A stretch of DNA of 64,000 nt, from contig CAVZQN010000003.1 of assembly GCA_963777505.1 (NCBI GenBank), positions 32,001 through 96,000 on the forward strand, written 5' to 3'. The notes beneath the pieces were generated by a model, which worked only from the letters and a program-made list of their open reading frames with translations, had not been told where the DNA came from and did no database searches. Positions 299 through 14,652 of this stretch are shown in pieces; the stretch's first letter is position 1, and each line of letters starts with the position of its first letter. Both the position numbers and the translations under genes were made by a program. This DNA is from an uncultured bacterium (GTDB taxonomy: Bacteria > Acidobacteriota > HRBIN11 > JAKEFK01).

Positions 299-324
299 AG
301 GGCGGCTCTTAGACGCGCCCCTAC
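299..324. repeat. Degenerate GTAG-family REP palindrome (related to 5323-5400)
   Basis: agggcggctcttagacgcgcccctac resembles gggcgggtctaagacccgcccctac at 5375-5399. Confidence 0.55.
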
Positions 325-402
325 TATTTTGATAGACTACAGTTTCCACCCCGGCGTATAGCCCACCCGATTTGAGCCGTACATATTCCAGGAGGACTAA
401 TC

Positions 403-1758
403 ATGGTTTCAAGAATCGATTCCGGAAAGACAGGTCCAGTTTCACAACCTGAGCCTAAGGAAGTAGAAGTCAGTCAAAAATCAAGTGATACTGCAGCGTT
501 AGAAAATCAGGCTACACCAGCAGAAAACAAAACTGCACTTGCCTCAAATGCAGCCGAAAGAGCAAGTGAAAGTTCATTAACAGGACGCATTCTAGCAAAT
601 CAATTGCAATCTCAAGTACAAGCACCGAGCACAGCTGTCGTACCATCTCAAGGTCCTCTTTTGTTTGAAGGCAAAAATGAGCCCGCTTCAACGAAGGATT
701 TTCAAAAACAACTCAATGAATTTAGATCGGAAAAAGGCTTACCGCCGATTAAAGAAGATGGAATTTATGGCCCCGAAACGAAAGGCGCTGTAAAACAATT
801 TCAGGAAGCAAATGGTTTAAAAAATGATGGAATCGTTGGAGACAATACAAGATCAAGATTAACACTGGAAAATAATCCTGACTTTAAGAAACTTGATCCG
901 TCGGTTCAAGATCAGCTGCGCACTCGGATGAATGATTCCCAAAAGGATCCAACCTCCAGACAGCTTCTTCTAACAATTGGCACCGATCCAACATTCGCAA
1001 AACTTCCAAAAACGGAACAAGATGCTGCATTAAAAGACATCAGCACTTCGGCAAGTTCGTTAACGCAAAAAACACTTCAAGGGATGTCGAATGATGAATT
1101 GTTGAAGATTGCGGATTCTCCTGGGGGCCAGGAGCGTTTAAACGGAATGAAGTTCGCATTGCAACAAGGCCCGATCAGTCCTGGATCCTTGAAAGAACTG
1201 GACCGGCTTAATTCGGCAACATTTACTCCGGCAGGTGGATTGAAGCTGAAAGGAAGTGAAGCTGATAAAGCTGCTTACTTAAGCATGACAAGAAGGGAAA
1301 TGTTAACTTCGCCAACCTTTGCAAAGACCATGAATGAAATTAATGCCGACAAAGCTCATCCTGTAACTGTGAATGTTGGTCGTGACATGCCCAACGTCCG
1401 CCTGGATGTGGATCGTGGCAACGGTCTTCAAGACGTTGATTTGAATGATTTCGATAAGTTACCTAAAACTCCCGGAGCCAGTAATCCACATGCGATTACT
1501 CAAGGCGAAGTCTTATCCCATGCGATGAGAGAGGCGCGGCAAAGAGCGCTCGGTCAAAATCATGATCAAGCCCACGAAGCTGCTATTAATGAAGAGAATC
1601 AATACAGAAAGGACATCGGTCAAACGAGTACCAGGAAATTGCCGCCAAATGATGAAACAAGAGTGGACAATGATCTTGGCGATACAACTCTCGTGATCCA
1701 TTTCAATGGAGCACCAGATGAAGAACTAAAGTTTGATAAAAAACAGCGGCTTCAATAA
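403..1758 (+). CDS. Peptidoglycan-binding (PG_binding_1) domain protein with C-terminal M91/NleD-like zinc-metallopeptidase-like region; putative secreted effector
   Basis: GGAGG RBS at 391-395; PG_binding_1 signature 'FQKQLN...DGIYGPETKGAVKQFQEANGLKNDGIVGDNT'; C-terminal 'EVLSHAMRE...AHEAAINEENQYRKDIG' resembles M91-type H(E)xxE/H...EN.xR..G; no Sec signal peptide. Confidence 0.7.
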   Translation: MVSRIDSGKTGPVSQPEPKEVEVSQKSSDTAALENQATPAENKTALASNAAERASESSLTGRILANQLQSQVQAPSTAVVPSQGPLLFEGKNEPASTKDFQKQLNEFRSEKGLPPIKEDGIYGPETKGAVKQFQEANGLKNDGIVGDNTRSRLTLENNPDFKKLDPSVQDQLRTRMNDSQKDPTSRQLLLTIGTDPTFAKLPKTEQDAALKDISTSASSLTQKTLQGMSNDELLKIADSPGGQERLNGMKFALQQGPISPGSLKELDRLNSATFTPAGGLKLKGSEADKAAYLSMTRREMLTSPTFAKTMNEINADKAHPVTVNVGRDMPNVRLDVDRGNGLQDVDLNDFDKLPKTPGASNPHAITQGEVLSHAMREARQRALGQNHDQAHEAAINEENQYRKDIGQTSTRKLPPNDETRVDNDLGDTTLVIHFNGAPDEELKFDKKQRLQ

Positions 1759-1767
1759 GGAGGAATT

Positions 1768-2202
1768 ATGGATCAGCAAAAAATAATAAGTGAAAAACAA
1801 AATCCACCTCTTGCTATGACTGAAGAAGAGTCATTGAAAGATCTTGTGAAGCGAAACAATCTCATCTTTATCGGTTCATTACTTGAACTGGGCAAACCAC
1901 CAAATGATTGGTCAGGATGTGGGAATGCGTTTCAAAGCGCTAAATATAAGATCGTCCGAATCATTAAAGGACAATATGGTGCTTCCGAAATTTCTGTAGA
2001 GCATGTCGTCGTTTACGGAAGTAAAACCGCTCAACCAGGCGAAACTCCTGGATTATTAAGTTCAATGTTCTCACCCAATAATGAACTGATTGTTTTTGCA
2101 AGGAAAACTGATTCCGGAAAATGGAAAGATACCAACGAGGTTCATGGCGCTCTTCCTGCAACGGACGAATGGCAGCAGAAGGTGGAAGCCGCCTTACGCT
2201 AA
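1768..2202 (+). CDS. Hypothetical protein, TIMP/NTR-like OB-fold pattern; possible inhibitor/immunity partner
   Basis: AGGAGG RBS overlapping the upstream stop; 'LKDLVKRNNLIFIGSL...YKIVRIIKG...ELIVFA' pattern. Confidence 0.6.
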   Translation: MDQQKIISEKQNPPLAMTEEESLKDLVKRNNLIFIGSLLELGKPPNDWSGCGNAFQSAKYKIVRIIKGQYGASEISVEHVVVYGSKTAQPGETPGLLSSMFSPNNELIVFARKTDSGKWKDTNEVHGALPATDEWQQKVEAALR

Positions 2203-2207
2203 TCAAG

Positions 2208-2282
2208 AGAGGATAGAGAATAGAGGATAGAGAATAGCAGGTCCTTCCATCTTCTATCCTCTATTCTCTATCCTCTATTCTA
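2208..2282. repeat. Inverted pair of heptamer tandem repeats (agaggat/agagaat); probable terminator-like hairpin
   Basis: agaggatagagaatagaggatagagaatag ... ctatcctctattctctatcctctattcta. Confidence 0.8.
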
Positions 2283-2636
2283 CTTATGCCCACATATCTC
2301 ATTTGGTAATACTATTAAAATAGTACTACAGCCTTTCCTTCCAGGCTGGTCGTGTCAGATAGTGAAACTTAATTGACACAGAACGAGGCGGACGGCTACA
2401 ATAGGTTCATCCCAGGAACTGGTCCCATTGAGGGAGAGTGTGAAGGCATTTCCTGAATCAAATATCGTTTCGTTTTCTGGTCGAGAACCAATCCATTTGC
2501 ATCTGCCTCCCTGCCTCATTTCACAGCTTTGCGGGATCATCAAGCATGCTTTCGATACTTCTGCTACTGCGCGAGAAAATCACAAGTTAGAAGTAATGCT
2601 TGAAGCTTGAAACATTAATTCACAGGGGAGTTCAAT

Positions 2637-5315
2637 ATGCTGCGTATCAAAAAATCAGTTGGTCTTTCATTAGTTCTTTTGCTTTTTGCAGTCATGCTGG
2701 CATATGGTCAGTCAAGAGAAACCGGCGCAATTCAGGGATCCATTACAGACTCAGAAGGTGCCCCAGTTCCGGGTGTAACTGTTACTGCGACAAATATGAC
2801 TCTGAAGGGACGCGATGCCACGGCGTTCACAGATGAAAAAGGAAAGTATCGATTTCCTTCACTTGCACCGGGAACCTACCAGATTCAAGCAGAGCTGGAA
2901 GGTTTTCAAACTTCAGTTCGTTCAGACGTTCGATTGTTTGTAGGCAACACCGTTGATGTAGACCTGAGCATCGGACAGTCTGTCACAGAGACAATCGAAA
3001 TTTCAGGCGAAACTCCTTTAATTGATGCAACAACAACAGCAAGCTCGAAAACAGTCCCCGTGGAAACGATTGAGAGTTTGCCGAAAATGTCCTTTGCGTT
3101 GGATCTCTTCACGCTAACCCCCGGAGTTGGAGATCTCAGCTATGTGGCTTACGGAGCGGGTGGATCGCAAGCCAATGCGTATTGGTTTGACGGTGTCGAC
3201 ATTAGCAATCCTGTTGATGGAACTTACTGGATTTATCCAAATTACAACTGGATTGAGGAAGTCCAGGTTGTCGGTATCGGAGCTCCAGCGGAATATGGTG
3301 GTTTTTCCGGAGTCATTACCAATACTGTCAGTCGTTCCGGCAGCAACGAATTTCATGGCCTCGTTGAAACATTTTTTCAGAACGATTCGCTGCAGGGTGA
3401 AAATGTCGATGAACCCGGTTTAGAAGACTTAGGATCAGATACAACGGATCTGTTCACCGATTCGACGATTCAGGTGGGCGGCAGGCTTATTCACGATAAG
3501 CTCTGGTTCTTCACAAGCGCAGAGTACTACTACGATCGATCAGCACCGTTTGGATATCCACCGGACAACTCAAATTCGTTTGTAAAAGTAACGCAGCCAC
3601 GTATTCTCAACAAACTGACGTACAAAGTAAACGACAACAATACCATGCAGGGCTTTATCCAGTGGGATGATTATGATCTGGACGGTGGCAGTGCAAGTCG
3701 GTTTACACTTCCAGAAGCAACAAGCGTAAATGGCGGACCAGAGTGGTTCTACAACGCCTCATGGATTTCGATTCTCAATCCGGAAACCGTGCTCGATGTT
3801 CGCTACAGTGGTTACAATTCGAAATACGACACCAATGGACGGAATGGCGACATCCCAGGACACGTCGATCAAATACGGACATTTCCAACACCAATTATTT
3901 TGGAATCCGTTTACGAGATCGCATAGAAATCAGATTAATGCCAACGTTTCTTATCATGCGAGCGATTTCATCAAAGGCAATCACGATTTCAAATTCGGTA
4001 TCGAATATGAGCATTCCAACGCGGATACGGTCCGAGGGTTGGAATGGCGACGCATATTACTATGATGGACTTGGACAAAATTCTTATGATCCGACGAGTC
4101 CCAATTTCTATCGCACTCTTTGGGAAGGCTATGACTCTTTGAGCCGGATCCGTCGAACGAGTTTCTTTGCGCAAGATAACTGGAATGTTACAGATCACGT
4201 GAATCTCAGTGTCGGCGTCCGCGTCGATCGCAATCATGCGTTCCTTGAAGAAGCAACTCAAATTGAATACACAACGACTCCAGTCGCACCTCGTGTAGGT
4301 ATCGTTTACGATGTGGGCGGTGATGACACCACCGTTATCAAGGCTCATTACGGACATTTCTACGACAAAGCGATCTGTTTCTATATCGACGGAATCGACA
4401 ACTTTGGAGATAGGACGTACCAATACTGGTATGGAACATATTGGGGAACCTATCGATTCTCTCCCGGGGATAGTTTCTTTGTGGTCGATCCTGATTTAAA
4501 ACAAACGTATGTTGAGCAATTCACGATAGGAGTGGATAAAGCCTTACCGGAAGGGGTTACGCTCAGCGCGCATTACATATACCGGGACTTTCATAACATT
4601 GCGGAGGATGTTGAAACAAACGGAATCTATGAAGAGGTACCATTTGTCAATCCTGTTACAGGAGAGGCGATGACTCTTTTTAACCGGCTGAACCCTGACA
4701 CTCCCGACTCCTTCTTCATAACGAACCCCGACGGCCTATTCCGGAACTACCATGGGATTGAAGTTTATGGAGGAAAACGCTTTGGAAATGATTTCAGTTT
4801 AACAGGTTCCGTTGTTTGGTCGCGAAGCAGAGGAAACACCGGCAACAGTGACACTGAAGCGGACGGCTTTACAACGCTTTTCGATGATCCGAACAATAAT
4901 ATCAACATCGATGGAAAACCGACACACGACCCAACATGGGAATTCAAAGTAACAGGTATTTTTAAGATGCCCTGGGAGATTTTAGGGTCTTTCTATTTCC
5001 GACATTTTACTGGGGATACGTTCACCACGACTTTTCAAACTGGACGCGATGATCTGAGTCAAGGGCGTGTAATCGTCCGTGCGGTTCCTCGCGGGAGCGA
5101 ACGCCTGGATTCGAGAAGTGTTTTCGACTTACGGTTTGAGAAAGGAATTTGCTGTCTCTGACGGCAATCTGAAATTTACATTCGATTTTTTCAATTTGTT
5201 TAACAGCGGATATGTGACCAATTTGGAAGAACGTTTCGATCTAGTATCGTTTCTCGAACCAGAAGAATTTACTGCGCCTCGTCAAGTTCGACTTGGCGTC
5301 CGCTATCAGTTCTAA
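2637..5315 (+). CDS. Oar-like TonB-dependent receptor with N-terminal carboxypeptidase-regulatory-like domain (split by ~3 frameshifts)
   Basis: Signal peptide, 'GAIQGSITDSEGAPVPGVTVT..FPSLAPGTYQIQAELEGF', plug 'AEYGGFSGVITN', barrel 'FAQDNWNV..LSVGVRVD', C-terminal 'PRQVRLGVRYQF'; pieces in ORFs 2637-3926, 3730-4065, 3743-5161, 5079-5315. Confidence 0.9.
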
Positions 5316-5322
5316 AATATAA

Positions 5323-5400
5323 GCAGGGGCGGGTCTAAGACCCGCCCGCGTCAGATTTTATTTTGCAATGGAACGGGCGGGTCTAAGACCCGCCCCTACA
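5323..5400. repeat. REPIN-like inverted doublet of GTAG-family REP palindromes
   Basis: gcaggggcgggtctaagacccgcccg (5323-5348) and cgggcgggtctaagacccgcccctaca (5374-5400; reverse complement begins TGTAGGGGCGGG). Confidence 0.8.
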
Positions 5401-5404
5401 AACT

Positions 5405-7682
5405 TTGAAGAAATACCTTCTTTATGCTTTAGCTATCATTCCTTTACTGTATCTCGCATATCGGACTTTTGAACGGCCAAAGAAGCATCAGAAGATGCAA
5501 CGATTCTGCATACAATTTGATTCTGATTTCAATCGACACGGTGCGTGCCGATTATTTGCAGATATATAACCCTACCGGTGTGCCAACACCAAATCTTTCG
5601 AAAATAGCGAACCATGGTTATCTGTATACGAATGTAATTGCACAGGTGCCGTTCACGCTTCCTTCTCACTCCAGCATGCTTACCGGTACGTATCCTTTAA
5701 AACACAGAGTCCAGGAAAACATTGGCGCAAAATTAGGCGATGACGCCGTAACCCTTGCGGAAGTTTTGAAAGAAAATGGTTATCAGACCGCAGGATTCAT
5801 CGGGGCACTTGTTCTGGAATCAGGAACTGGTATTGAGCAGGGGTTCGATACATTCGATGACGTCTTTGTCCGGGAAGATAAAGTGATGGACGACCGCAGC
5901 GGTATACAAAAAGATGGCGCATCCGTAAAGCGGTCCTTCCTCAACTGGCTTGATCAAAGACAAACAAGTTCTCCTTTCTTTTCATTCATTCATTTCTACG
6001 ATCCTCATACACCATATAATCCGCCGCCTCCTTTTCGTCCAACTGAAAACGAACCGCGTGCTTTGTATCGTGGGGAGCTTCAGTATGTGGATGCCGTCAT
6101 CGGTGAACTGGTTGACGATCTGTCTCGCAGACAGTTGTTGAATCGAACGATTCTTGTGATCACTGGGGATCATGGTGAAATGCTGGGTGAGCATGGCGAA
6201 AATGGACACGGATTTTTTGTCTACCAGGAGGCTGTACGTGTTCCATTGCTGATTTCGCTACCCGATGGCTCCAAAGGCACGTCGAATGAAGTTTTGGAAC
6301 TTGTTGATTTAATGCCAACCGTTTTGGAGCTGCTCAAAATTCCGGTTCCCAAAACAGTTCAAGGAAAGTCGTTTGCTCAAAATCTCACTGGAAAAAATTC
6401 ATCATCGGGTTTTGCATATGCAGAGTCTCTTACAGCGACACAGCATTTTGGCGCGGCTCCACTTCTAAGCTTGCAGGATCACCGGTTTAAGTACATCGAA
6501 AGTCCGCAGCCGGAACTTTATGATCTGAAGGAAGATGCGCATGAACTAAACAACATCGCGGTCAAACGAAAAGAAATCGCGAACAAGATGAAAACAGTTT
6601 TACAGGAATTTCTCGGCAAAAATAAAGACACAAGCGCGAAACCGGTAGAGCGGGAGATTTCACCTGAACAACAGGAACAACTGGCTGCACTCGGCTATAT
6701 TGGGGGGACTTCAGCAGCTGACTATCGGGATTCAACTCTGGATGCAAAAGAATGTATTGAGAGTTGGAAAGACCTGGGCATCTTGAGCGAGCTGGTAACG
6801 CAGCCGCCTTGTGAGGAGTGTATTGTCCTTGTAGACAGAATTCGGAAGCGCGGGGTTTTGCCGGTTCAAGCACGTATCTTTGCAGCACGCGCTTATGCCG
6901 GGTTGCAAGATTACAAAAACGCAATTTCCGTTTTGCAGGACATTGTTCAGGAGAACCCGAGAAATACTCAAGCTCAATTGGTTCTTGCTTATTCACTAAC
7001 AAGGGCCGGCGATCATCCTTCTGCACTTCGAATCTATAAACAATTGATGGAAGAAGATTCTCTGCTTGGATTGGAAAATTATGCAGAGCTGATGATCCGG
7101 TTAAATCGAAAACAGGAATTGCATCAAACAATAGAACAATTTGCTGCTACGCATAAACTAAGCGAAAAACATTATCCGGTTCTCGGTGAAATCTACTTGC
7201 TTCTACAAAAACTCGAGGAAGCTCGAAGTTATTTGATGAAGGCGATGGAAACATCACCTGAAAATCCTTACGTTTATATTCATCTTTCAGCGTTAGTCGA
7301 TGCTGAAGGAAAGACCATGGAGGCAATTAACCTTCTTGAACAGAGGCGCGGACAATTTGAGACTGCAGATTATTTAATGCAACTTGGGAGGCTGTACGCG
7401 AAAATAGGAAATACTCAGAAGGAACATGAAGCTTTCCAGGAAATGGTACGATCGTATCCGAATGATTCCAGAGGTTATTTCTTCCTTGGAAAAATCATTC
7501 TCCAACAACGTGGAGATATGAAGCAGGTAATTCAACTGGCAGAGAAAGGACTGAGCCTTAATCCCGATCCGGAATTCCAGTCTTTCGGATATTTTCTCTT
7601 AGGAGATGCATATACGGCACTCGGGGAGTCAGCGAAAGCCCAAAGTTATTTGAAAAAGGCGGAACAATTGCGGGCTCAGTGA
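5405..7682 (+). CDS. Sulfatase-like (alkaline-phosphatase superfamily) hydrolase with C-terminal TPR repeats; N-terminal anchor joined by a frameshift near 5490
   Basis: 'NLILISIDTVRAD', 'PFTLPSHSSMLTG', 'HFYDPH', 'GDHGE', 'QLAALGY', then TPRs; TTG at 5405 gives MKKYLLYALAIIPLLYLAYR in another frame. Confidence 0.85.
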
Positions 7683-7710
7683 ACTACTCGCCTTAATATT
7701 CAGTTAGCAC

Positions 7711-10004
7711 ATGAGATCAGTAAAATTAAAACTGTTGGCGCCGGTTATTGCTATTCTCCTGGCAGCAGCCTATTACATCTGGCGGGGCAGCACGCCCGGA
7801 ATTACCGGAGTTCCTCCAATCTGTCGCAAAAGAAAAGTACAACGTTTTACTCATCACGGTTGATACAATCCGCGCCGACCGGCTCGGATGTTATGGTTTT
7901 CAAGACATTGAAACACCCAACATCGATGCGCTTGCTGCCTCGGGAACTCTTTTCTTGGATGCGACCGCACACGTTCCTTTAACACTGCCATCACATACTT
8001 CAATTCATACAGGACATTTTCCTTCCTTTCATGGAATTCATGATAACGGTGGCTTTTACGTGTCTAAATCTCAAACCACACTCGCTGAAATGTTCCGGCA
8101 GAATGGATTTGTAACGGCAGGATTTGTCGGCGCTTACGTTCTGGATTCAATCTGGGGACTCGATCAGGGCTTCGACACTTACTTCGATAATTTTGAGATT
8201 TCAAAACAGAAAAGATTTAGTCTCGCGAGCGTGCAACGAAAGGCAGACGATGTTCTGGACCAGTCACTGGAATGGCTTGGCGAAAACAAGGACAAACGTT
8301 TTTTTCTTTGGACACATTTTTACGATCCGCATACACCTTATGAACCTCCCAAAGAATACGAGATGAAATATCCGGATCGGCCTTACATTGGTGAAATCGC
8401 GTATACAGATTCCGTAATCGGTAAAATGCTGAACTATCTCGATCAGAATCAGCTACGGGACAAGACAATCATTCTGCTAACCGGTGATCATGGAGAAAGT
8501 CTGGGGGAACATGATGAATCAACGCATGCGATCTTTCTCTATGATTCGACGTTGAAAGTTCCAATGATTCTTTCTGCGCCTGAAAAATTAATTCAAGGCA
8601 AGCGGATTCAGCAACAGGCGCGTTCCATCGATATCGCGCCCACTTTGTTGCAGCTTACCGGGATTCCGGTACCTGAAGATGTACAGGGAAGAAGTTTGCT
8701 CCATTTGATTTGGAACGAGCAATCGCCTTCGACGGTCTCGTACGCTGAAGCATACTATTCGCAATATCACTTCGGTTGGAGCAGGCTGCTTTCACTGCGT
8801 ACTTCCACGTTCAAATATATTGATGCACCAAAACCCGAACTGTACGACCTGAAATCGGATCCAGGTGAGTCCGTAAATTTGTATGAATCGAAAAAAGAAA
8901 TCGCCAAACAGATGAAATCTGAGCTCAGTCAAATTGAAAAGCAGAAGCAACAGGATGCAAGCATGCGTCCGGGAGCGGTAGATGCGGAAGTTCACGAAAA
9001 GCTTGCTGCACTTGGTTATGTTGGAGCTTTTGTCGAAACTCCAACAGAAGATCCAACTGATCGCGCAGATCCGAAAGACAAGATCTCCATGTTCAATCTA
9101 ATTCAAGATGCGCAGGAAGCTTCTCTGGATGAAAAAACTGAGGAGGCGATTGCGCTCTGCAAAAGAGGTTCTGGAACTGGATCCCGGGATCGTGGATGCT
9201 CAGTTCCTACTGGGAAACGAATACTTTCGAAGCAAACAATATCCGCTCGCACTCGAAGCGTTCAAAAAAACACTCGAGTTGAAACCCGACTACGATGCAG
9301 CAATAGTGAACCTTGCCAATACGTATCGCCGAATGGGACGAATAGAAGAAGCCCTTGCTGGATTCCAACACTTTTTGCAAAAGAAACCAGATAATGCACA
9401 GATTCTTCATCTGGTTGGTGAGCTCTATCTGGCCATGGAGCGTCCGGAGGATGCGCTCGCCTCGTTTCAAAAAGCGATCGCTGTGGAGCCTGATACAAGC
9501 TGGCTCTACAACGGAATTGGCGCTGTCTATTACAAGCAGAAAGAGTATGTCAGGGCTGAGCAGTTCTTCCGAAAAGCGCTGGAATTAAATCCGGAAACTG
9601 CGATGACGCATTTTAACCTCGCGCAACTTTACGAAAAGCTGGGACAAATGGATCGTGCCATCGAAGAGTATCATGCAGAGCTTAATGTGGCCGCGCAAAA
9701 TGTGAAGGCGCATTTCAATCTTGGCAGATTCTATATGAAAGAAGGACAGATAGACTCCGGTATCAAGCACATGCAAGCCGCCATTGAAGCGGAACCGGAT
9801 TTTGCTATCGGTCATCTTTTTTTAGCGCAAGCCTTTGTAGAAAAAGGAGATTTGACGAAAGCAAAAGAATTGGCGGAAAAAGGTCTTTCACTGAATCCCG
9901 ATCCTGAATATCGGCCGTTAGGGCACTTCGTGCTTGCGGACATCTACAACAGGCAGGGACGTTTTGATCTAGAACGGCAGGAACTTCGCAAAGCGAATCA
10001 CTAA
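7711..10004 (+). CDS. Second sulfatase-like/TPR protein (tandem paralog; frameshifts near 7790 and 9160)
   Basis: ATG 7711 MRSVKLKLLAPVIAILLAAAYYIW; 'NVLLITVDTIRAD','PLTLPSHTSIHTG','HFYDPH','GDHGE','KLAALGY'; TPR array in 9108-10004. Confidence 0.85.
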
Positions 10005-10067
10005 TCGAATGGAATGGCGCCTGGTTATGTCTTGAATTTCTTTTGTGCGGAACTAATGTTCTAGTAG

Positions 10068-10217
10068 ATGATTCGTAAACTAAGAAACGGACAATACAGG
10101 CTTTACTCGCGCAAGAAAGATCCGAAGACCGGGAAGCGCCGCAATTTAGGAACTTTTCCCACCAAAGAAGCAGCCCAAAAACACGAACGGGCAGTTCAGT
10201 TTTTTAAACACAAATAG
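10068..10217 (+). CDS. Small basic conserved hypothetical protein (49 aa), below the ORF-track cutoff
   Basis: MIRKLRNGQYRLYSRKKDPKTGKRRNLGTFPTKEAAQKHERAVQFFKHK; I recall similar small proteins in other bacteria (not database-checked); 'LGTF.T.E.A' resembles AP2/Arm-type nucleic-acid-binding motifs. Confidence 0.8.
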   Translation: MIRKLRNGQYRLYSRKKDPKTGKRRNLGTFPTKEAAQKHERAVQFFKHK

Positions 10218-10287
10218 TCTTATTGCGACCCCCTGAAGGAAACTTCTTTCTTGTTGTTAACAGCTCTGCGCATTTTTGCGAGAGTTT

Positions 10288-10482
10288 TTACATCAATGCT
10301 ATTAAAAGAAGTTGTCCGGTGACTAAATCCTTTACCTCAGCGACTGGTGAATTTGAATATAGTTCGCGCATTTGTTCGGCCAGGGTCTCCACAGTCAACT
10401 CTAGCGTATCCGAAAGGTCAAGGTTCTGTTCAACCTCTCCTCCTTCATTATCAGATTGTCCTGCACCTATTTCCAAGTTCAT
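10288..10482 (-). CDS. Small acidic hypothetical protein; N-terminus paralogous to 13524-14522 (may extend to 10220 if a T-run base is missing)
   Basis: GGAGG RBS before ATG 10482; MNLEIGAGQ vs MNLKVGAGQ; shares the upstream element. Confidence 0.6.
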   Translation of the reverse strand: MNLEIGAGQSDNEGGEVEQNLDLSDTLELTVETLAEQMRELYSNSPVAEVKDLVTGQLLLIALM

Positions 10483-10552
10483 ACTTCCTCCGAATAACGA
10501 ATCATCAAACGCAGTTAGAGTAAATCGAATAATGTCCACCTGCATCGGCCTA

Positions 10553-10609
10553 GAGTGCGACTAGTATCTATGAAAATAGGTGAGCGTGTAACTCCAACTT
10601 AAGTTATAG
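10553..10609 (-). promoter_or_regulatory. Conserved 57-bp upstream element, copy A (palindromic operator plus promoter candidate)
   Basis: Minus strand CTATAACTTAAGTTG-N11-TCACCTATTTTCATAGA-N6-TCGCACTC; identical blocks and spacing at 14596-14652. Confidence 0.75.
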
Positions 10610-10685
10610 TTGCGAAAGCACGGCTAGAACAGCAGAAACAACGCAGAGCAAATCTTTAGTAAGCTCCCTACCTACCGAATCAATA

Positions 10686-11855
10686 TTAGGGGGTCAGTAC
10701 GATTTTGATGCAACCTTCTACACGATCATTAAAAATCTGATAACCTTCGGCTGCATCTTCAAGCTTCATTGGATGCGTGATAATGAAGCTTGGATTGATA
10801 TCGCCTCGGATCACAAGTTCTAAAAGCCTTGCCATATATTTTTGAACATTCGTTTGTCCCATTTTGAAGGTTAGTCCTTTTGCGAACGCAGCTCCAATCG
10901 GAAATTTATCAATCAACCCGCCATACACACCAGGGATTGATACGGTTCCACCTTTTCGGCAAGCCAAAATTGCTTCGCGTAGCGCGTGGGGCCGATCGGT
11001 TTCAAGCCTTACAGCTTGTTTTGCATAATCATAAATGGCGCCAATCGTACGGCCATGAGCTTCCATTCCTACTGCATCAATACACGAATCCGGACCCCTG
11101 CCGCCGGTTCTTACTTTCAGTTCATCAATCACATCGTAATCATCGTAATTGATTACATCAGCACCTACATCCAGAGAAGCCATTTCAAGCCGCTCTGGAA
11201 TTCTATCAATCGCAATGACTTTTTCTGCTCCAAGCAAATACGCACTTTTTATAGCTAGCAGTCCAACAGGACCGCATCCCCATACAGCGATGGTATCTCC
11301 AGGTTGAATATTGCAATTTTCTGCAGCTGCATAACCCGTGGGAAAAATGTCTGACAAAAATAACACTTGCTCATCCGTTAATTCCGGGGGCACCTTGATC
11401 GGACCTACATCGGCCATTGGAACACGCACAAATTCGGCCTGTCCGCCAGAATAGCCGCCATACATGTGTGAATAGCCGAACAACCCTGCACCTGTGTATT
11501 TATAGAGCAACTCCGCCATATATGCGTTTGGATTTGTGTTATCACAAAGAGACCAAAACTCATTCTGGCAGAAGAAACAACTTCCACATCCAATATTAAA
11601 TGGCACTACTACACGGTCGCCGACATTCAGGAAATGATCCTTCGATCCAACTTCTACAACTTCTCCCATGAACTCATGGCCAAGTACATCGCCTTTTTTC
11701 ATGGTCGGAATATATCCGTTGTAAATATGTAAATCTGAACCGCAAATCGCGGTGGATGTAATTCGAATGATTGCATCTCGTGGATTAATAATGTGCGGCT
11801 CCGGCACATTCTCCACACGTACATCATTCTTTCCATACCAGCAAACAGCTTTCAT
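10686..11855 (-). CDS. Zinc-dependent alcohol/formaldehyde dehydrogenase (MDR, YbdR/FDH-like)
   Basis: 'ICGSDLH','GHEFMG', structural-Zn cysteines 'CGSCFFC...C', 'GCGPVG'. Confidence 0.92.
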
Positions 11856-11875
11856 AAATCCTCCTTGAACAATTC

Positions 11876-12613
11876 TTACGCTGCCGATCTTTTTCTTTTT
11901 CCTCCTTCAGGTTGACCTTCAGTTGTTGGAATTTCACCAGTCTCAATTAATTGTTTGAACCGGCGGAGATCTTCCTGGAGTTGAAATTCAGGTACTTCAC
12001 TTAACATCTTGGACAGAGCTCCTCCAAGTTTTCCTGTTCCAATGGCATAGTTCACTTCAACTTTTACTTCTGTGCCAAATCGGTTTTTGATCGGCTTAAA
12101 AGTGACTGATCCTGCATGATTGATTTCTGATTCCGGTAAAGTTCTCCACGCGATGAGTTCATTAGGGATTTCGTTGTAAATTTCAGCCTTCCATTCAACG
12201 ATTTTTCCTGGGGGAACTTTTGCTTTCCAAAGAGAAACACGATCATCGATCAATTCAACCGAGTCTAAATATTTCATGATTTTTGGCAGATTTCTGAAGT
12301 CACGCCAAAATGCAAATAGTTCCTCCGGCGATTTGTTGATTGTTACCGCTTTCGCAATCTTCTTGCCTTGATTGTGTCCAACAACAGCATTGGGAGGAAG
12401 TTGACGGGTTGTGTTGATTCCTAAGACGTTGTAGAACGCAGAATTTCCACGCAATCCGCGATAAATGAGACCGGCTCCGCTCGCGGCAGCTAGAACTTTC
12501 AGCGCTGTCGGTCGGATCCGGAACGCCCCAAGGAGTAAGAGGGTTCCTCCAAGTACTCCTGAAACACACCGTTCTGCATTTCCTATGTTTTTAGATGGAT
12601 GGTTTGTGTTCAT
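11876..12613 (-). CDS. SRPBCC (cyclase/dehydrase) protein with N-terminal DUF2892-like membrane segment
   Basis: 'KNIGNAER', '[22 protein letters not shown]', '[17 protein letters not shown]'. Confidence 0.88.
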
Positions 12614-12735
12614 AAATACCTCTTTGTCTAAAATCTAAACCGATGTTCGGAAGGTTCAAGAAAGATCTTGAGGAAAAACTTGTAGTCTTATTCGCGACAG
12701 AACTTCTTTGATTGCAGGAACGTAAACATTTAGCG

Positions 12736-13518
12736 ATGAAAACACCATGGCGTAAACTGATCTTCTTTTTTGCGCTTGCTTTTTTACTTTCGTGGTATCC
12801 ATGGATTATTGCGTTATTCAGAGGAACAATAACCGGGCCGAATCCGCTTGGACCATTCGTCGCTGCTTTGATCGTGCTTGGAATAACAGAAGGCAGAGGA
12901 GGAATTAAGCAATTACTTGCAAGAATTGTTCGGTGGCGAGTTGGAATTCAATGGTACGCCGTCATTTTTTTATTGCCCGTTGTTATAAGTGGGGTAGCAC
13001 TTTTGACCAATTTAGCTGCCGGAGCTCAGATCAAGTTGGTAAACGAAAATCTGTTTCAGTGGAAAGAAATTCTAAGCAGCTTCATTTTCATTTTTTTGTT
13101 TATCGGGTTAGGTGAGGAGCCTGGTTGGAGAGGATTTGCGCTAGAAAAACTTCAAAAATTATTTTCGCCGCTTCGTTCCACGTTGATCCTGAGTGCCATC
13201 TGGGCAATATGGCATTTGCCTCTGATGGGTTCCGAATTCCCATTGCCTGTAATCCCTGCCTTCCTTATTTCTTTAATGGGTGGGGCACTCGTACAGACTT
13301 GGGTGTATAACCGCACAAATGGAAGTGTCTTGCTTATGATGCTGTTTCATAGCACTCTGAATACAGTTGCAAGTGGAATGGTATTCCAATTATTCCAGGG
13401 GAATGATGTGACTCGCCTTTGGTATCTGTACGCCTTGGCCTGGCTAACAGTTGGTGTTGTCGTTGCCAGAAAAATCACCACAAAGACACAAAGTTTTGTG
13501 CCTTTGTGGTGGAAATAA
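12736..13518 (+). CDS. CPBP (CAAX/Abi) intramembrane glutamic endopeptidase
   Basis: 'EEPGWRG','WAIWHLP','FHSTLN' motifs, multiple TM helices. Confidence 0.9.
   Translation: MKTPWRKLIFFFALAFLLSWYPWIIALFRGTITGPNPLGPFVAALIVLGITEGRGGIKQLLARIVRWRVGIQWYAVIFLLPVVISGVALLTNLAAGAQIKLVNENLFQWKEILSSFIFIFLFIGLGEEPGWRGFALEKLQKLFSPLRSTLILSAIWAIWHLPLMGSEFPLPVIPAFLISLMGGALVQTWVYNRTNGSVLLMMLFHSTLNTVASGMVFQLFQGNDVTRLWYLYALAWLTVGVVVARKITTKTQSFVPLWWK
13476..13511. repeat. CCACAAAG-family inverted repeat overlapping the CPBP 3' end; probable bidirectional terminator
   Basis: caccacaaagacacaaagttttgtgcctttgtggtg. Confidence 0.7.
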
Positions 13519-13523
13519 AAACA

Positions 13524-14522
13524 TTAGTCGTCAACTAACTTTTTGGCTTTAAACAGCCTTTCCTCAAGGTCGATGAAAGACTCTTGTTCTCTGTATTTGT
13601 CCGCTTGAAATATAGCTTCACGATATTCATTCGGCTTGTCATTTCCGTTTTTGTATTGCACCGACATTTGTACCGGTTCGGACCAGGGATTTAACCAGAT
13701 TTCATTCTGCCATGTCCCATTATTCCTGGATAACTCAGGAGGCGGACCACCCTGAATCATTGATTTGTTATTTGGACCCTGGCTATTTGCATGAGTCCCA
13801 TCAACCGTTGTGGTCCAATGGTCGAAACCATTTGGCAGCCTGTTGCAATGCATCGTGACGGAAGAATCTTTGAATGCACCATGTGATTTCAGCGCTGCAA
13901 TTGTTGTTGCAACTTGAGAAGTGCTAACGCCCATTAAGTTGGGATTAGATTGTCCGCCGATCGGCATGCGTTGTGCCATTCGATACATTACTTGCTGCAT
14001 CTGTTGTGCATCTTGCGGACTCAACACGCCTTTCTCAAACCTTTTTAATGCGGCTTGTTCATCGCCTGACATCTTTAATGGAGGTTTTAAAGATCCTGCA
14101 AGATCCTGAACAGCTTGCGCATTTGCCTTTGCTTTTTCAGGCGTCTTGCTTGAAAGGATCAATGCATTTGCAACTGCCGCACCGCCACATAAACTTGGAC
14201 CATTGCCCTGTGCCGTTGAAATTGGGTTGATCTGTGGCGCACTTCGTAAAAGCCCATTCCGCGCTTCCTGACTCGATGTTATGTCTACTGGCTGGTTTTG
14301 GCCGACTTTGGGCGCATCTTTTTCAGCTACTGCAGCGTTCAGACTCACTGCACGCATTTGCCCGGTCAAAGCGGTCTCGGCCTTCATCTTATGTGGATCA
14401 GAAGCATCTTTTTTCGGAAAGACATCTGCCGTTTTCGTTTCAGCCGCCGGAGGCCTTTCCTCCATTGCCGTCGCACTTTGAACGGAACCAGTTGCTTGTC
14501 CTGCACCTACTTTCAGATTCAT
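13524..14522 (-). CDS. Hypothetical protein, putative papain-like cysteine protease effector
   Basis: GGAGG RBS; low-complexity N-terminus without signal peptide; Q97...C112 in 'SLCGGAAVANAL', H235 'DHW', N246 'ANS'. Confidence 0.6.
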   Translation of the reverse strand: MNLKVGAGQATGSVQSATAMEERPPAAETKTADVFPKKDASDPHKMKAETALTGQMRAVSLNAAVAEKDAPKVGQNQPVDITSSQEARNGLLRSAPQINPISTAQGNGPSLCGGAAVANALILSSKTPEKAKANAQAVQDLAGSLKPPLKMSGDEQAALKRFEKGVLSPQDAQQMQQVMYRMAQRMPIGGQSNPNLMGVSTSQVATTIAALKSHGAFKDSSVTMHCNRLPNGFDHWTTTVDGTHANSQGPNNKSMIQGGPPPELSRNNGTWQNEIWLNPWSEPVQMSVQYKNGNDKPNEYREAIFQADKYREQESFIDLEERLFKAKKLVDD

Positions 14523-14595
14523 ATCTCCTCCAAATATTTGCGAACTATGAACAGCAATAAGAGTAAGGTAGGCAGACTCCGGCTGCCTCTACTTG

Positions 14596-14652
14596 GAGTG
14601 CGAATTCTGTCTATGAAAATAGGTGAATGAGTCTCTACAACTTAAGTTATAG
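14596..14652 (-). promoter_or_regulatory. Conserved 57-bp upstream element, copy B
   Basis: Same three blocks and spacing as 10553-10609; palindrome TCTATAACTT|AAGTTGTAGA overlaps the aminotransferase stop codon. Confidence 0.75.

Follow-up and report, generated by a model that had tools for sequence, protein, structure and literature searches.

A dispersed family of tagged proteins in an uncultured acidobacterium, candidate effectors of an unusual type III secretion system

The closest described systems

Type III signals are, to our knowledge, marked by the lack of a sequence consensus, and we know of no HMM-detectable motif common to the effectors of classical injectisomes, which as far as we know target eukaryotes. 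These effectors use class I (CesT-like) chaperones. T6SS markers of the MIX/FIX type are shared N-terminal trafficking regions. Among type III secretion systems (T3SSs), only one known to us is tied to bacterial killing, the T3SS* of Myxococcus.

According to the accessible text of five papers (PMC12075869, PMC10433427, PMC12428579, PMC3459982, PMC12248157), the "needleless" T3SS* of Myxococcus xanthus (MXAN_2434-2464) is required for the lysis of bacterial prey and has no secretin in its cluster; the accessible sections of one of them state that its effectors are unknown (PMC10433427). The T3SS found in relatives of our source genome resembles it in its non-flagellar core, FliO, several LcrH/SycD-like chaperones and the lack of a cluster secretin, but is acidobacterial and has SctF-like needle and translocator-like genes. 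T3SS* is paired with Tad/Kil, whereas RcpC is found in 0/7 genomes here, and for the Acidobacteriota system a candidate effector repertoire can be recognised by its tag, in contrast to that statement for T3SS*. We provisionally call this system Myxococcus-like. The canonical injectisome, unlike the relatives' locus, includes the SctC secretin.

Early flagellar subunits carry a two-part signal, an N-terminal hydrophobic signal and a gate-recognition motif (PMC8983047, accessible part). The tag described below is similar in having a hydrophobic extreme N-terminus, a spacer and a motif at constrained distance, but there is no flagellin here, and the class I motif lies further out (53-75) and is helical. 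In polymorphic toxin systems, the N-terminal trafficking region is common, the C-terminal toxic domains vary, and partner genes are adjacent (PMC3482391, accessible part). The tag family shares this arrangement of N-terminal region, variable C-termini and partner genes with these toxins and with MIX/FIX proteins, except that its marker is no folded domain but a short motif within disordered sequence. With classical injectisome effectors it shares signal-less disordered N-termini, dispersed genes and protease cargo; it differs in its HMM-detectable motif and in having no class I chaperone that tracks it.

Two window genes and a genome-wide family

The window is a stretch of 64,000 nucleotides from genome G000, which was compared with relatives G001-G005 and with other genomes of its class. 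It contains two candidate effector genes, A and B, and the following associated features:

324..336, forward: 12/13 match to the CTATTTTCATAGA block, of uncertain meaning
403..1758, forward: candidate effector A, 451 aa (tag, PG-binding domain, helical linker, zincin-fold domain)
403..618, forward: export-like tag of A (MVSRI, disordered linker, motif helix; leave-one-out HMM E 1.8e-5, 0/200 shuffles)
565..606, forward: class I motif of A, aa 55-68
694..861, forward: PG_binding_1 of A, aa 98-153 (Pfam E 4.8e-14)
1195..1755, forward: predicted zincin-fold domain of A with a non-canonical metal motif (pLDDT 95.8)
1768..2202, forward: cognate partner gene; its product lacks a signal peptide and is a candidate inhibitor/immunity protein
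10288..10482, reverse: decayed, truncated duplicate of B, 64-codon ORF (51-nt and 3-nt deletions, early stop)
10456..10609, reverse: duplicated upstream region of this remnant, including a palindrome (10592-10609) and a block (10567-10579)
13524..14522, reverse: candidate effector B, 332 aa (tag and predicted papain-like cysteine-protease fold; pTM 0.78)
14340..14381, reverse: class I motif of B, aa 48-61 (leave-one-out E 8e-4, 0/200 shuffles)
14610..14622, reverse: CTATTTTCATAGA block upstream of B
14635..14652, reverse: imperfect copy of an 18-bp palindromic operator upstream of B

The original prediction was that A and B, both signal-less, belong to a family scattered over the genome of an Acidobacteriota host, whose members have an N-terminal motif in common and exchanged C-terminal domains. 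The motif is present in both proteins (central glycines 61 and 54), no hydrophobic signal stretch is seen at either N-terminus, and the names of matching proteins agree with the host. An HMM built from these two N-termini has 13 non-seed matches in the G000 proteome, 10 of them family-type proteins, and a profile search of the proteome gives 37 non-redundant signal-less members, with diverse C-terminal domains. In these class I proteins, M-x-R/K-I/V is followed by a disordered linker of ~40 residues and an E-x-x-L-x-G-Q-x-R-x-x-x-L helix, whose glycine is clustered at aa 53-75. The maximal 11-residue hydropathy of the N-terminal region is <=1.04 in 37/37 members (no Sec/Tat signal), and the disordered N-termini are rich in S/T/P/Q/E. 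A second tag class comprises ~20 proteins with G-I-A-x-x-x-D-x-F-E at about residue 30-45. The raw lists (45 and 21) were reduced to 37 and 20 by removing nine names, which were near-identical copies on contigs C7, C12 and C13 and three mis-started entries.

Identity in the class I columns is only 21%, yet 23/26 members score above all 200 shuffles in leave-one-out HMMs, and reversed and shuffled composition-preserving decoys give 0 matches at E<1. Motif matches number 43 in G000, 27 in G001, 18 in G003 and 5 in G005, with none in G002, G004 or the six other genomes of the class (G007-G012), all of which bear a T3SS. Among 1.84 billion proteins, 17 representatives matched, and 16 of these are tag-type N-termini or query seeds. 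The likeness of A to B, taken as a pair, is borderline (score matched by 25/2000 shuffles; rank 22 of 4395 N-termini), so this part of the prediction does not stand on the pairwise score; it is significant because the family is genome-wide. We have very little doubt that the tagged family is real. An unpublished genome (G035) is counted only in 41-genome tallies and is the basis of no claim. A literature search, mostly outside subscription papers, found no description of the family. Together, the two HMM-detectable tags mark ~55 candidate T3SS substrates in the G000 lineage.

The cargo is varied. PG_binding_1 occurs in 10/37 class I members, and the family also includes papain-fold or zincin-fold proteases, a transglycosylase (SLT domain, one member), an annexin-repeat domain (one member) or an HxG/SxGC pattern that we take to be L,D-transpeptidase-like (one member). 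Four members are peptide-precursor-like and lie beside modifying enzymes. FGE-sulfatase-like partner genes lie behind three members; many members have no partner gene. A periplasmic target fits poorly, because the 1768 product and two of the three FGE-like partners have no signal peptide. Several class I members are frameshifted; most are intact, with conserved catalytic residues.

In A, residues 51-69 are better conserved than the linker (0.76 versus 0.54 in 37 orthologs; means leave out fragments and tag-less rows). The metallopeptidase-like domain expected from the sequence is modelled as a zincin fold, and its fold-search scores are middling but consistent (best Z 8.3, rmsd 3.8, 147 aligned; top rows all zinc-peptidase folds, the closest including NleC/GtgA-type zincins). 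HExxH is absent; HxxxE and a further His and Glu are invariant in 42/42 sequences (H373, E377, H391, E398, N399 all invariant), and the [DE]N signature resembles that of Tox-HopH1 (M91-like), from which A differs by having no HExxH. The Myxococcota protein P0045 has the same zincin-fold domain behind its own disordered N-terminus. Both A-type genes of G000, like those of G001 (2 loci) and G003, are followed by a 1768-type gene, which is absent beside the PG-less G005 variant of A, making 1768 a candidate inhibitor or immunity protein of A. Its product has no Pfam match; in the language-model atlas it scores 0.89 against a cluster of which 13% is PF00965 (TIMP/NTR-like, a lead only), and complex prediction with A (aa 85-451) gave no answer (score 0.05).

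For B, the anticipated cysteine protease is borne out by a model of papain-like (clan CA) type, with invariant Q97, C112, H235 and N246 (Cys-His-Asn and oxyanion Gln) and papain-clan folds in the top rows (best Z 7.1, rmsd 4.0, 149 aligned), the closest including AvrPphB and deubiquitinases. Pfam and NCBIfam searches of B gave no match. A helix at 43-63 is predicted at low confidence (aa 1-64 pLDDT <50). No conserved partner gene lies beside B; the CAAX-protease gene at 12712-13518, considered as its immunity gene, is convergent and not conserved at orthologs. The gene at 10482 had been put forward as a third member. Its ORF and upstream element are indeed shared with 14522 (protein alignment matched by 0/2000 shuffles; element 71% over 157 nt, E 2e-15), but the likeness extends into the coding region, indicating duplication, and the family HMM scores it at -1.1 bits; we regard it as a remnant copy of B and not as an independent, co-regulated member.

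Export machinery and upstream signals

An export machine had been postulated outside the window. SctV-family matches are found in 5/6 genomes of the taxonomic family and 6/6 other genomes of the class, and all three relatives with the tag family carry a T3SS. The G001 cluster has SctR, SctL and SctN above curated T3SS cut-offs, together with S, T, U, V, J, Q, FliO and SycD-like genes; its SctF-like protein scores 0.92 in the atlas, with 10/10 best family matches to PF09392, and translocator-like genes are present in the relatives' locus. The SctV proteins form a clade separate from FlhA (support 96/100), and flagellin is found in 0/5 genomes. By its gene content (SctRSTUV, SctN, SctL, SctJ, SctQ, no flagellin) the relatives' locus can be classed as a non-flagellar T3SS. 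No SctC is found among the G001/G002 cluster genes; each genome has three secretins, of which in G000 two belong to T4P/T2SS operons and the third is an orphan. The nearest named outside SctN (~69%) is labelled "Deltaproteobacteria".

The machine is not in the G000 assembly itself (95.9% complete): FHIPEP, FliP and FliI/YscN profiles detect no SctV, SctR or SctN, the last giving only F1- and Rho-type matches. Collinearity of G001 contig C3 with G000 C4 and C2 extends as far as the first gene of C2, and the ~200 kb beyond, T3SS included, has no collinear G000 counterpart. This missing block breaks exactly at a G000 contig end and also carries uvrC, purD, purE and rnhA; uvrC is present in 6/6 relatives and absent from G000, which has a uvrB-like gene. 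Checks with purM/purL motifs gave no match and are not used as evidence. The G000 T3SS genes thus appear, from synteny, to be located in an assembly gap.

As to chaperones, G000 has four SycD-like proteins, one of which shares 46% identity with a gene of the G001 cluster. CesT-like matches occur in G000 (two domains), G001 and weakly G004, with none in G003 or G005, a distribution that does not track the family and does not support these proteins as the motif chaperone. Of the T6SS or eCIS genes also suggested, sheath, VgrG and VipB are not found in G000, nor are VirB4, RcpC and YbjN, and no T6SS/PVC/T7SS-type carrier was found in the genomes examined: VipB is at 0/4, VirB4 above cut-off at 0/7, and a contractile sheath is absent from these incomplete assemblies except for one gene in G001. 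T3SS-cluster proteins match the motif models weakly (best E 0.008 among 114). No public sequencing run contains half of the query words, and no RNA run is among the matches listed; four small-share runs mapped to the G001 T3SS give short, low-depth pieces that are not attributable.

Common regulation had also been proposed. The 12/13 match is present upstream of 403, and such matches occur within 110 bp of only 5/4636 genes, three of them window genes, but the block is not kept upstream of B orthologs L099 and L100. From sequence comparison, the conserved operator is the palindrome: perfect copies precede two other family genes and two B orthologs from other metagenomes, with exact copies in 0/6 relatives. 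It is absent upstream of 403, and with 10482 a remnant and the upstream signals of family genes being of four or more kinds, a single regulon is rejected. A FliA-like gene lies within 5/5 T3SS loci of the taxonomic family, and GCAAC-N17-CGATAA, a FliA-like promoter, precedes the needle gene in G001, G003 and G005 (475 kb of G001 sequence contain nine strict matches, four of them inside the T3SS cluster). CGATAA is upstream of 9/57 G000 tag genes versus 69/2652, and in the relatives' loci of 6/19 versus 1/42, these patterns having been picked after inspection of upstream sequences. The eight proximal sites of GTGCGTTA belong to six tag genes and two SycD-like units. FliA-like, sigma-54 and GTGCGTT signals are absent upstream of the two window genes.

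Proposed mechanism and alternatives

We consider the tagged proteins probably to be effectors of an unusual T3SS needle aimed at other bacteria. Type III export is, from the genomic evidence, the likelier part; bacterial targets are favoured somewhat less strongly, and both export and killing are what we infer. The extreme N-terminus and the motif ~55-70 residues in would form a two-part export signal, resembling either the flagellar hydrophobic signal plus gate-recognition motif or a chaperone-binding helix. Unfolded substrates would pass the SctRSTUV gate and the SctF-like needle, and would cross the outer membrane by some further route (no cluster secretin, no Tad found). On reaching or entering a neighbouring bacterium, the cargo may be anchored to the wall by its PG-binding domains, and this wall would be damaged there by the protease, transglycosylase and L,D-transpeptidase-like domains; adjacent genes (1768, FGE-sulfatase-like) would restrain the cargo inside the producer. 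Expression would be split among a T3SS-linked FliA-like sigma, sigma-54, an ECF-like signal and the palindromic operator.

The same proteins could instead serve against eukaryotes (protist grazers, fungi) or in scavenging, with the PG-binding domains as tethers to the producer's own wall. The folds near AvrPphB, deubiquitinases and NleC/GtgA-type zincins keep protist or fungal targets in play, as do the annexin-repeat member, the members lacking partners, and a needle-like gene and SycD-like chaperones typical of eukaryote-directed systems. We nevertheless hold this to be unlikely, given the wall-directed cargo (PG_binding_1 in 10/37, one SLT, one L,D-transpeptidase-like pattern), the conserved partner genes, and a nearest studied system that lyses bacterial prey with local peptidoglycan degradation (PMC12428579, accessible part). 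Somewhat less probable still is that the tag serves another route or partner (vesicles, lysis, a contractile system, or an ABC/FHA exporter that works through CesT-like adaptors), the T3SS link being a lineage coincidence. That link is statistically weak, because the four tag genomes are kin from two genera; T3SS-bearing G002, G004 and G007-G012 have no motif matches, and the two CesT-like domains of G000, the lone G001 sheath gene and the four precursor-like members, in which the helix might provide docking in the manner of a leader, would suit such a route. Against it stand the absence of sheath, VgrG and VipB from G000, of sheath, VipB and CesT-like proteins from G003/G005, and the promoter signals common to tag genes and needle genes or SycD-like units.

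Genuine loss of the T3SS, leaving decaying tag genes, would explain its absence from a nearly complete assembly as well as the 10482 remnant and the frameshifted members; it is improbable, since the missing block, which also holds uvrC, purD, purE and rnhA, stops exactly at a contig end and the majority of members remain intact, their catalytic residues conserved. A chance resemblance among low-complexity N-termini, to which the borderline pairwise score and low column identity might point, is refuted by the decoy tests, and given the fixed motif position and the copies that occur independently in three further genomes and among the 1.84 billion proteins, we assign it practically no weight.

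Returning to bacterial targeting by a T3SS, a fuller picture is conceivable but doubtful: an as yet undescribed antibacterial Acidobacteriota injectisome, needle-bearing, secretin-less, Tad-independent and tag-reading, which would deliver wall-lytic enzymes and modified peptides into adjacent bacterial cells for a contact-dependent predator. The peptides would be lanthipeptide-, radical-SAM-, JmjC- and methyltransferase-tailored precursors with the tag as leader. The lineage offers substrates with two tags, a T3SS-linked promoter and a cargo biased to peptidoglycan, which opens to test how a T3SS reads effector signals, whether injectisomes act against bacteria and whether modified peptides are T3SS cargo. 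If true, an uncultured Acidobacteriota family would have to be seen in a new light, possibly as a predator or a competitor.

A tagged protein family in one Acidobacteriota lineage

The two effector candidates of the window (genes 403 and 14522), the small ORF 10482, both N-terminal motifs and the upstream blocks were all recovered at the coordinates of the original prediction, which had proposed a dispersed effector family with a shared N-terminal motif and swapped domains. The pairwise similarity between the 403 and 14522 N-termini is borderline (its score was reached by 25 of 2000 shuffles, and ranks 22 among 4395). An HMM initially built from only these two N-termini and searched against 21,066 candidate N-termini of the host genome (G000) returned 13 non-seed matches, 10 of them of the same build. 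A second model comprised 26 members chosen among these matches, and gave no match at E<1 to decoys consisting of reversed and shuffled N-termini. When left out of the model, 23 of the 26 members outscored all 200 of their own shuffles; 14522 scored E 8e-4, and 403 scored E 1.8e-5 with its paralog also kept out.

Iterated searching of G000 gave 45 class I entries, or 37 once near-identical copies and mis-starts were removed. These proteins begin with M-x(0-5)-R/K-I/V, followed by a polar linker of ~40 residues and the helix motif E-x-x-L-x-G-Q-x-R-x-x-x-L, the Gly of which lies at residue 53-75. Among 37 orthologs of 403, conservation is 0.76 in the motif region vs 0.54 in the linker; for 21 orthologs of 14522, just individual positions stand out. 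Class II comprises 20 G000 proteins, mostly small, with G-I-A-x-x-x-D-x-F-E.

Across 41 genomes, class I matches number 43 in G000, 27 in its sister species G001, and 18 and 5 in G003 and G005 of the same family; two further genomes have single matches at chance level, and the remaining 35 have none. Class II matches number 21, 8, 3 and 1 in the same four genomes, in that order, and zero in the other 37. On this distribution, the tag family is restricted, at the sensitivity used, to a single Acidobacteriota family, in which two genera carry it. We found no description of it in the published literature, mainly freely accessible main texts. One near-identical tag-gene cluster occurs in three copies in G000 (C7:178133-184426, C12:3-8889 and C13:370-8424), representing either a recent duplication or strain variants, and on contigs C5 and C7 many genes for Ser/Thr kinases and FHA-domain regulators lie among the tag genes.

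Cargo domains and partner genes

PG_binding_1 is present in 10 of the 37 class I members; other cargo includes one SLT domain, one annexin with a PG domain, and one alpha/beta hydrolase (the latter below cut-off). Patterns seen by eye in further members are presumably Cys-His protease, transglutaminase-like, HExxH and L,D-transpeptidase-like. In its predicted structure 14522 has a papain-like protease fold, with Q97, C112, H235 and N246 invariant, and the C-terminal domain of 403 is predicted to have a zincin fold, whose non-canonical HxxxE..H..EN site is invariant in 42 sequences. Gene 1768 directly follows the 403-type gene in both G000 copies, G001 and G003, and no such partner was found at the G005 variant of 403, which is without the PG-binding domain. 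Its resemblance to TIMP/NTR metalloprotease-inhibitor folds is a lead only. FGE-sulfatase-like genes lie behind three PG-protease members. Elsewhere in the window, a TonB-dependent receptor-like gene (2637-5161) and a sulfatase-TPR gene (7748-10004) are broken across frames.

Four tagged members resemble peptide precursors, each beside one or more tailoring-enzyme genes, and are possibly RiPPs exported by the type III system (T3SS).

Tagged peptide-precursor-like genes of G000
C4:961679-965680, four Cys/Thr/Ser repeats; LanC-like enzyme convergent
C7:101963-105625, B12 radical SAM and O-methyltransferase alongside
C1:258446-260158, Gly-Pro-Cys repeats; split JmjC neighbour
C8:270788-272315, His/Pro-rich; neighbour methyltransferase-like by eye

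The type III system of the relatives

Neither SctV, SctR and SctN nor sheath, VgrG, VipB, VirB4 and RcpC were found in the G000 assembly (95.9% complete). An SctV-family gene is present in five of six family genomes and in all six other genomes of the class. The G001 cluster encodes SctJ, L, N, O, P, R, S, T, U and V, SctQ-FHA, FliO-like, SctE/F/G-like and SctI-like proteins, a FliA-like sigma factor, and SycD-like chaperones with translocator-like neighbours; the labels SctE, SctI, SctO, SctP and translocator are our reading. No flagellin was found in any of five genomes examined, and in the SctV tree the SctV proteins form a clade separate from FlhA, with sister pairs G001+G003 (motif) and G002+G004 (no motif). 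No secretin was found within the T3SS cluster, and the same two or three lie outside it in each genome. An orphan TPR-secretin of ~600 aa (G000 C11:55961-57772), with counterparts in family genomes, is a candidate for a borrowed outer-membrane pore.

G001 contig C3 is collinear with G000 C4 (475-280 kb) and C2 (260-200 kb), ending at the first gene of C2. For its other ~200 kb (1-200000; T3SS, uvrC, purD, purE, rnhA) no collinear counterpart was found in G000, and uvrC, present in all six relatives, is absent only from G000. The simplest reading of the missing block is an assembly gap, and with ~200 kb missing, claims of absence for G000 call for caution. G000 keeps four SycD-like genes away from a T3SS locus (C5:6212, C7:85337, C7:117676 and C7:166030); before three of these, the preceding protein ends, in our reading, in a needle/translocator-like C-terminal helix. 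Effectors exported by a machine encoded outside the window had been predicted, and this is largely right as to tag, cargo and a T3SS in kin, but not as to a single regulon. Related SctV or needle-like genes occur in other Acidobacteriota families (G039:C53 (L155), G021:C291, G028:C2, G008:C2), and a single phage-sheath gene in G001 (C4:1030131, L168) lies in convergent orientation to the gene of a class II tagged protein.

Regulation and proposed mechanism

ORF 10482 was rejected as an independent third member, being a decayed copy of 14522 (DNA similarity to ~codon 75, two deletions, early stop), and the upstream element common to both is therefore not independent. Its 18-bp palindrome is kept before two orthologs of 14522 from other metagenomes, in which the CTATTTTCATAGA block is not conserved, and before two other family genes; it was not found upstream of 403. 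A perfect copy at G000 C6:418014 lies in the interval separating the stop codon of a Ser/Thr kinase gene from the start of a response-regulator gene, and precedes no family gene. Three patterns, picked after inspection of the upstream sequences, each occur before some of the 57 G000 tag genes, compared here with background: CGATAA (9 vs 69/2652), sigma-54-type (11 vs 52) and GTGCGTT (7 vs 8). Genes 403 and 14522 carry none of them. Family genes thus stand under differing signals, contrary to the single regulon proposed originally.

We consider CGATAA the most important signal, because a FliA-like gene is present in all five family T3SS loci, in each of G001, G003 and G005 a common promoter pattern (GCAAC-N17-CGATAA) lies upstream of the needle gene, and in the relatives' loci CGATAA is found before 6 of the 19 motif genes, against 1 of the 42 other genes. 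Four of the nine strict promoter matches in 475 kb of G001 fall inside the T3SS cluster. Sigma-54 promoters with activator-like TTTGC-N(4-7)-GCAAA sites occur upstream of 5/57 tag genes (C12:5587, C3:5856, C9:3359, C6:267238 and C1:128681) vs 3/2081.

In the mechanism we propose, the tag would be a two-part export signal, its layout resembling flagellar two-part signals as the accessible text of the source presents them (PMC8983047). Tagged proteins would leave by the type III route, through gate and needle, and cross the outer membrane by some further route; the cargo would then harm the cell wall of neighbours, and partner proteins would hold it in check. Counting against this are the G000 assembly without a T3SS, the failure to find the motif in other T3SS carriers, the kinship (hence non-independence) of the genomes with the motif, the cytoplasmic partner proteins, and fold neighbours of the cargo that include eukaryote-directed proteins.

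The non-flagellar T3SS* of Myxococcus xanthus is similar in that FliO is present and a secretin absent, according to the accessible parts of its descriptions (PMC12248157, PMC3459982). Unlike it, the Acidobacteriota locus has a needle-like gene, and Tad was not found, which places the system outside T3SS* as defined. In M. xanthus prey is lysed with local peptidoglycan degradation, and the accessible parts of the reports state that the effectors are unknown (PMC12428579, PMC10433427, PMC12075869). The Acidobacteriota system probably functions like T3SS*.
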